NCBI GenBank assembly: GCA_013265495.1
Contig: MU057719.1
Coordinates: 374,001-434,000, forward strand
Direction of reading: 5' to 3'
DNA: 60,000 bases
Origin: Vicugna vicugna
Lineage: Eukaryota
Shown here: positions 25,699 to 25,997 of the stretch, in pieces
Position numbering within the stretch: position 1 is the first letter of the stretch
Layout of the letters: every line of letters begins with the position of its first letter
The notes under the pieces: model-generated
Databases searched by the model: none
Seen by the model: only the letters and a program-made list of their open reading frames with translations
What the model was told of the DNA's origin: nothing
Made by a program: the position numbers and the translations under genes

Positions 25699-25997
25699 TT
25701 AAAAACTTTTGTCGACTCTGAACACAATAGAGACTAGGAACGCTTCGCAGACGGCGCGAGAGGAGCTGGCAAGAAACGCCACCAGCCACTCGGGGAACCT
25801 GCTGGTGGCGGACACGCCCCTCCGCCAAGTCCTCTTCAGCGGCGGCTCACGCCAGGGCCGCCGGGTCCCCACGCCTGGACGCCTGGACGCCTGGACGTGC
25901 GGAGCCCGGGGAAGGCACCACGCCACCCCATCGTTCTCCAGCGCGGCCGAGGCGATGATGTTCTCCGTCGGGTGGCACGCCGTCGAGATGACCACAT
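25699..25997 (-). CDS. WDR5: WDR5 exon 14 coding part ([23 protein letters not shown], then read-through into 3'UTR-like sequence to TAA at 25699-25701)
   Basis: tttcag|ATGTG acceptor; WDR5 match holds for 25930-25997 only; canonical KTIKLWKSDC* is absent. Confidence 0.8.

Follow-up and report, generated by a model that had tools for sequence, protein, structure and literature searches.

The WDR5 locus and its surroundings

The window, i.e. the whole stretch of 60,000 nt analysed here, carries on its minus strand a WDR5 gene with 13 coding exons (39783 to 25699), whose spliced frame spans 1203 nt with one stop and encodes 400 amino acids. Coding exons 2–13 (26144..39783) are all intact and lead from Met1 to the first base of Asp302. 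They are located, on the minus strand, at 39783–39703, 38924–38816, 38513–38440 and 38085–37996 (exons 2–5), at 37818–37729, 37529–37446, 34070–34015 and 29765–29719 (exons 6–9) and at 27623–27548, 26994–26961, 26776–26702 and 26231–26144 (exons 10–13). Exon 14 begins at 25997, directly after a TTTCAG acceptor (AG at 25999–25998), and its retained coding part (25930..25997, minus strand) provides the rest of Asp302 and the following residues up to Asp324. This part matches WDR5 residues 302–324, in agreement with a preliminary description of the DNA that had followed WDR5 through ...ASAALEND to a GAT codon ending at 25930. AG acceptors precede all internal exons, and the donors comprise 11 GT and one GC. 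Residues 1–324 are identical (324/324) to the best 12 homologues, among them P0149 of horse and P0058, P0061 and P0135 of dromedary, when gaps are permitted opposite the insertions predicted in the homologues. Since these residues are free of substitutions and all splice sites are intact, the locus is without sign of decay, and the 324 unchanged residues give no hint of relaxed constraint.

The single non-canonical donor follows the first WDR5 coding exon (39702–39701, minus strand), where GC meets 6/7 consensus positions. Dromedary gene models continue past this donor with Ala, as the DNA of the window would. Probably, the GC–AG intron is common to camelids and misleads annotation.

Downstream of the coding region, an AATAAA at 24195..24200 (minus strand) is probably the poly(A) signal ending the last WDR5 exon; a second AATAAA occurs at 23966. 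About 3 kb downstream of WDR5, and convergent with it, stands a full-length U6atac snRNA gene (21224..21349, plus strand; Rfam RF00619, 144 bits, model positions 1–126 of 126), which we take to be the usual neighbour of mammalian WDR5. With its 13 coding exons, near-invariant protein and adjoining U6atac gene, the gene is an ordinary WDR5 orthologue, broken at its end as assembled, and not the WDR5B retrogene.

When the assembly was searched at both DNA and protein level, a single WDR5 locus and a single WDR5B retrogene came to light. The latter is on another piece of the same assembly (L002:705–1697, plus strand; G000:C9438) and is intact, with 330 codons, its own normal tail and a predicted propeller fold in the 330-residue product. 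It corresponds to the WDR5B treated in passages of PMC11275010, which report low expression in pluripotent cells and binding that differs from that of WDR5. Unlike WDR5, it is intronless and diverged, and the unusual C-terminus described below does not derive from it.

Other features of the window are minor. Three tRNA-like Rfam matches on the plus strand (12286–12357, 1029–1084 and 10011–10082) score 30–43 bits with several broken pairs and are probably heads of tRNA-derived SINEs. A 19/35-nt minisatellite is found at 5309–5578 and a long array of GATG-type repeats at 45192–45675.

The junction in exon 14

The WDR5 match stops after the Asp324 codon, at a junction placed at 25929..25931 (minus strand); the break may fall within the third base of that codon. 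Beyond the codon, which ends at 25930, the same frame remains open over 76 unrelated codons until a TAA at 25701–25699 (25699..25929, minus strand). The foreign C-terminus of 76 residues, the TAA and the 400-residue product claimed in the preliminary description are thus borne out by the spliced frame. What is missing at the junction amounts to at least 33 nt, corresponding to 10 codons and the stop. Compared with known WDR5 (a COMPASS/MLL and NSL scaffold of 334 amino acids folded as a seven-bladed WD40 propeller; Pfam PF25175; PDB e.g. 2xl2), residues 1–324, the 13 coding exons and the U6atac neighbour are the same, whereas residues 325–334 and the stop are, as assembled, replaced by 76 unrelated residues.

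The 76 codons are presumed 3′UTR. Their product found no relative in protein searches (80, 64 and 33 matches; lengths 175–2000, 76–244 and 26–84 aa), and its last 30 residues are hydrophobic (GRAVY +0.98). The DNA past the break is single-copy and continues to the AATAAA at 24200 and then to U6atac; from the window itself, rather than from an orthologue alignment, we infer that it is the normal WDR5 3′UTR. Past the break, this frame stays open over 76 codons and the remaining two over 30 and 26; across the junction, all six frames are open for at least 54 codons. Long open frames are expected here because the DNA is so rich in GC. A stop-free antisense frame of 245 codons (25703–26440, plus strand) extends across exons 13–14 and is most likely a by-product of the high GC content; a HMMER search with one antisense frame returned only two unrelated low-complexity matches.

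The 200 bp surrounding the junction have a GC content of 70% (92nd percentile of the window) and contain 23 CpG, compared with a median of 7. An 8-nt tandem repeat of 3.4 copies (25871..25897) is located ∼30 nt beyond the junction. N is absent from the join and from the whole window. An inserted repeat at the junction is unlikely, as the stretch matches only itself and WDR5B in a search that skipped very common words.

The normal tail, KTIKLWKSDC, was sought well beyond exon 14. Over 260 kb (the window and 100 kb on each side), no six-frame match exceeds 5/10 tail residues, and a degenerate pattern for the tail and stop, with up to 2 mismatches, has no match in the 2.03-Gb assembly of 12,405 pieces. 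A positive control pattern, built on the residues preceding the tail, recovered both expected loci, WDR5 and WDR5B. As in the preliminary description, no other segment coding for the tail was found in the window, and with these patterns none was found in the rest of the assembly. The earlier remark on the lack of a strong GT donor at the break also holds: GT sites within 80 nt past the break score 0–3/7 on a simple donor consensus, whereas the 12 donors in use score 4–6/7. A GC site past the break scores 5/7. The absence of tail sequence elsewhere and the weakness of the GT donors make rescue by splicing unlikely.

Conservation and role of the missing residues

The normal tail is present in 80/80 relatives from a first protein search, in 134/134 after a second and, after a third, in 176/176 proteins bearing the search motif, out of 181. 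The five proteins without the motif are two unrelated ones, P0079, which has the normal tail, and P0154 and P0155, which are outside the count. Together with the identity of residues 1–324, this substantiates the earlier view of WDR5 as near-invariant, the tail being kept in every relative examined. In many animals, intact last-exon frames pass directly from exon 14 to the tail.

Among camelids, the lesion is absent from four Camelus models (P0056, P0058, P0061 and P0135), and both Old World camels keep the tail. Across intron 13 and exon 14, a Camelus ferus model parallels the window (46/49 residues) and then runs straight into KTIKLWKSDC; the intron-derived stretches of the Camelus gene models match the window closely, though inexactly. 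This points to a camelid outside the genus Camelus and suggests that the lesion is either younger than the split from Camelus or false. Protein searches yielded no New World camelid sequence spanning the junction, and the collection searched may simply contain none; the clusters looked up for 20 of the proteins bore no llama, alpaca, guanaco or vicuna name. An exact 27-nt exon pattern had no match in metagenome contigs. Of the 24 public sequencing runs listed, 20 contain part of the stretch; 14 of them, DNA or unlabelled and from six studies, hold 0.93–0.97 of its words and none reaches 1.00, the possible source itself standing at 0.97; six RNA or presumed-RNA runs hold 0.24–0.35. As one junction or one SNP costs ∼3 of 198 words, such shares cannot separate an artefact from an allele and are left out of the argument.

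The ten missing residues have a structural role. The last-exon frame of the window gives no match to Pfam WD40 (PF00400), and its PF25175 match ends at position 290 of 296, whereas two intact last-exon frames of other animals reach position 296, with WD40 scores of 18–19 bits. To judge from these profile matches, the seventh WD40 repeat, with its conserved Trp strand, is incomplete as assembled. In an AlphaFold model of WDR5B from the same genome (single sequence, mean pLDDT 81, pTM 0.79), taken as a structural stand-in for the 400-residue WDR5 product, the equivalent residues 322–328 form the last strand. This model and the lost WD40 match agree with the earlier assignment of IKLW to a strand of the seventh repeat. 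In WD40 propellers, the last strand pairs with the N-terminal strand and thereby closes the ring.

Functional data point in the same direction. WDR5 is called essential in PMC11275010, and mouse embryos in which the blood lineage lacks it die according to PMC10105386; both accord with the essentiality asserted in the preliminary description. Part of PMC6756287 reports that WDR5 is scored as intolerant to variation and that a single de novo missense change in a child was classed as pathogenic. Collectively, the essential function, the lethal loss and the pathogenic missense change make a homozygous or fixed loss very unlikely. Since the new stop is located in the last exon, a real allele would escape nonsense-mediated decay, and read-through products are described in PMC10364623 as being cleared via a BAG6-linked pathway. 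Such an allele would most likely be null.

Origin of the altered C-terminus

Very probably, the assembly omitted a short GC-rich stretch where two pieces meet. The animal would then carry a normal 334-residue WDR5; the assembly would have lost at least 33 nt, from the last ten codons through the stop and probably into the 3′UTR; most likely, two sequence ends would have been abutted, with no gap between them, where GC-rich DNA was poorly covered; and the 76-codon tail would be 3′UTR in which that frame is open by chance. The data show the join itself, a tail that is missing from the assembly although conserved and structurally important, and surroundings rich in GC; that the join is false, and that it arose in this manner, we infer. 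The locus is GC-rich, it is the only WDR5 locus found, and the lesion is absent from the close relatives in Camelus. In 200 kb of flanking DNA (20 × 10 kb) there are four N-runs, which may not be gaps; three have flanks of 71–89% GC and one of 62–64%. GC-rich flanks of this kind are the pattern of short-read dropout, with the same reservation that the runs may not be gaps.

Known cases of false gene loss concentrate in GC-rich DNA of short-read assemblies, as stated in a portion of PMC9516821. As there, the apparent damage affects a conserved gene and falls in a GC-rich part of a gapped assembly. The cases differ in two ways: the losses covered by that portion were demonstrated with a better assembly and reads, whereas the WDR5 case is known from assembled sequence; and the bias it describes is found mainly at the 5′ ends of genes rather than in last exons, whereas the WDR5 lesion is an N-free join in the last exon. 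The clean join counts against an artefact, as does the otherwise high base accuracy apparent from 324 intact codons, U6atac and WDR5B. Even so, the order given in the preliminary description, with an assembly or consensus error as the most likely cause and a real allele as a remarkable one, fits the conserved tail, its structural role, the single locus, the GC-rich site and the gaps of the scaffold in GC-rich DNA. If the join is an artefact, its meaning is that of a warning only: annotation would give a false 400-residue WDR5, and this false end, being joined without N, would pass ordinary gap checks.

It is unlikely, albeit conceivable, that the sequenced animal carries a rare heterozygous deletion and that the assembler kept the deleted haplotype. 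The encoded protein would lack the last propeller strand, end in a hydrophobic tail and probably be degraded, giving a null or weakly dominant-negative allele covered by the normal copy. The clean join in otherwise accurate sequence suits this explanation, as do the 8-nt tandem repeat and G-rich DNA adjoining the break; the hydrophobic character of the last 30 residues would likewise suit the BAG6-linked clearance mentioned above (part of PMC10364623). However, no positive evidence for such an allele was found, the constraint on WDR5 and the pathogenic de novo missense change (excerpt of PMC6756287) weigh against it, and alleles of this kind should be far rarer per animal than errors at GC-rich joins. 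Were it real, a large animal would offer a naturally occurring loss-of-function variant in a chromatin gene that is sensitive to dosage.

A deletion fixed or common in the New World camelid lineage after its split from Camelus, with a working new C-terminus or with WDR5B having taken over, is highly improbable. The frame open over 76 codons, compared with 30 and 26, has been weighed in its favour, yet so long a run is expected at such GC content, as the six frames open across the junction illustrate. With Val, Trp and Leu among them, the residues just after the break might in principle make up a strand, but the WD40 profile match is lost and residues 1–324 bear no compensating change. The intact WDR5B would be needed as a substitute, but its low level in pluripotent cells and reported difference in binding (passage of PMC11275010) speak against that role. 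Finally, no protein bearing the new tail was found in the protein searches, and every WDR5 relative examined keeps the normal one. It is equally hard to credit a living camelid lineage, or a homozygous animal, in which the last strand of WDR5 is replaced by 76 residues read from the 3′UTR and which survives since these residues close the propeller or WDR5B substitutes. A fixed deletion would call into question whether the WDR5 propeller has to be closed, or imply that WDR5B can replace WDR5; in a lineage or a homozygote, a chromatin scaffold that ranks among the most invariant in animals would have been rewired naturally.

There is hardly any chance that the mRNA is normal because the tail lies on a separate downstream exon, behind an intron newly gained, or on a piece that was displaced or left unassembled. 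The assembly is gapped, and a missing match is no proof of absence, but the break lacks a credible GT donor, the tail is found neither in the 260 kb nor, in a search with a positive control, genome-wide, and the intact last-exon frames of many animals go directly from exon 14 to the tail. Cryptic splicing is rejected on the same absence of a credible GT donor and of tail-coding sequence in the 260 kb and the assembly.

The earlier proposal of a deletion spanning the stop codon stands in part: the stop and ten codons are gone from the assembled gene, but the label of stop-loss does not apply, since ten structural residues are replaced. A classical stop-loss (nonstop extension) allele keeps a complete native protein with a changed stop, and here ten native codons are missing; the change, as assembled, is a C-terminal deletion with replacement. 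If real, it would resemble the nonstop alleles described in parts of PMC11502859, PMC12817085 and PMC10364623 in reading into the 3′UTR and in acquiring a hydrophobic C-terminus. In those accounts, nonstop alleles retain the whole native protein and add residues to it, whereas the WDR5 of the window loses ten. In the literature, titles and the opening parts of abstracts gave no account of such a C-terminal loss in WDR5, either in camelids or as a stop-loss. A separate observation concerns P0025 (Logan, 271 aa). This WDR5-like protein retains the Trp strand and reads ∼120 residues beyond the usual end; it may reflect either a genuine stop-loss or a fault of assembly.
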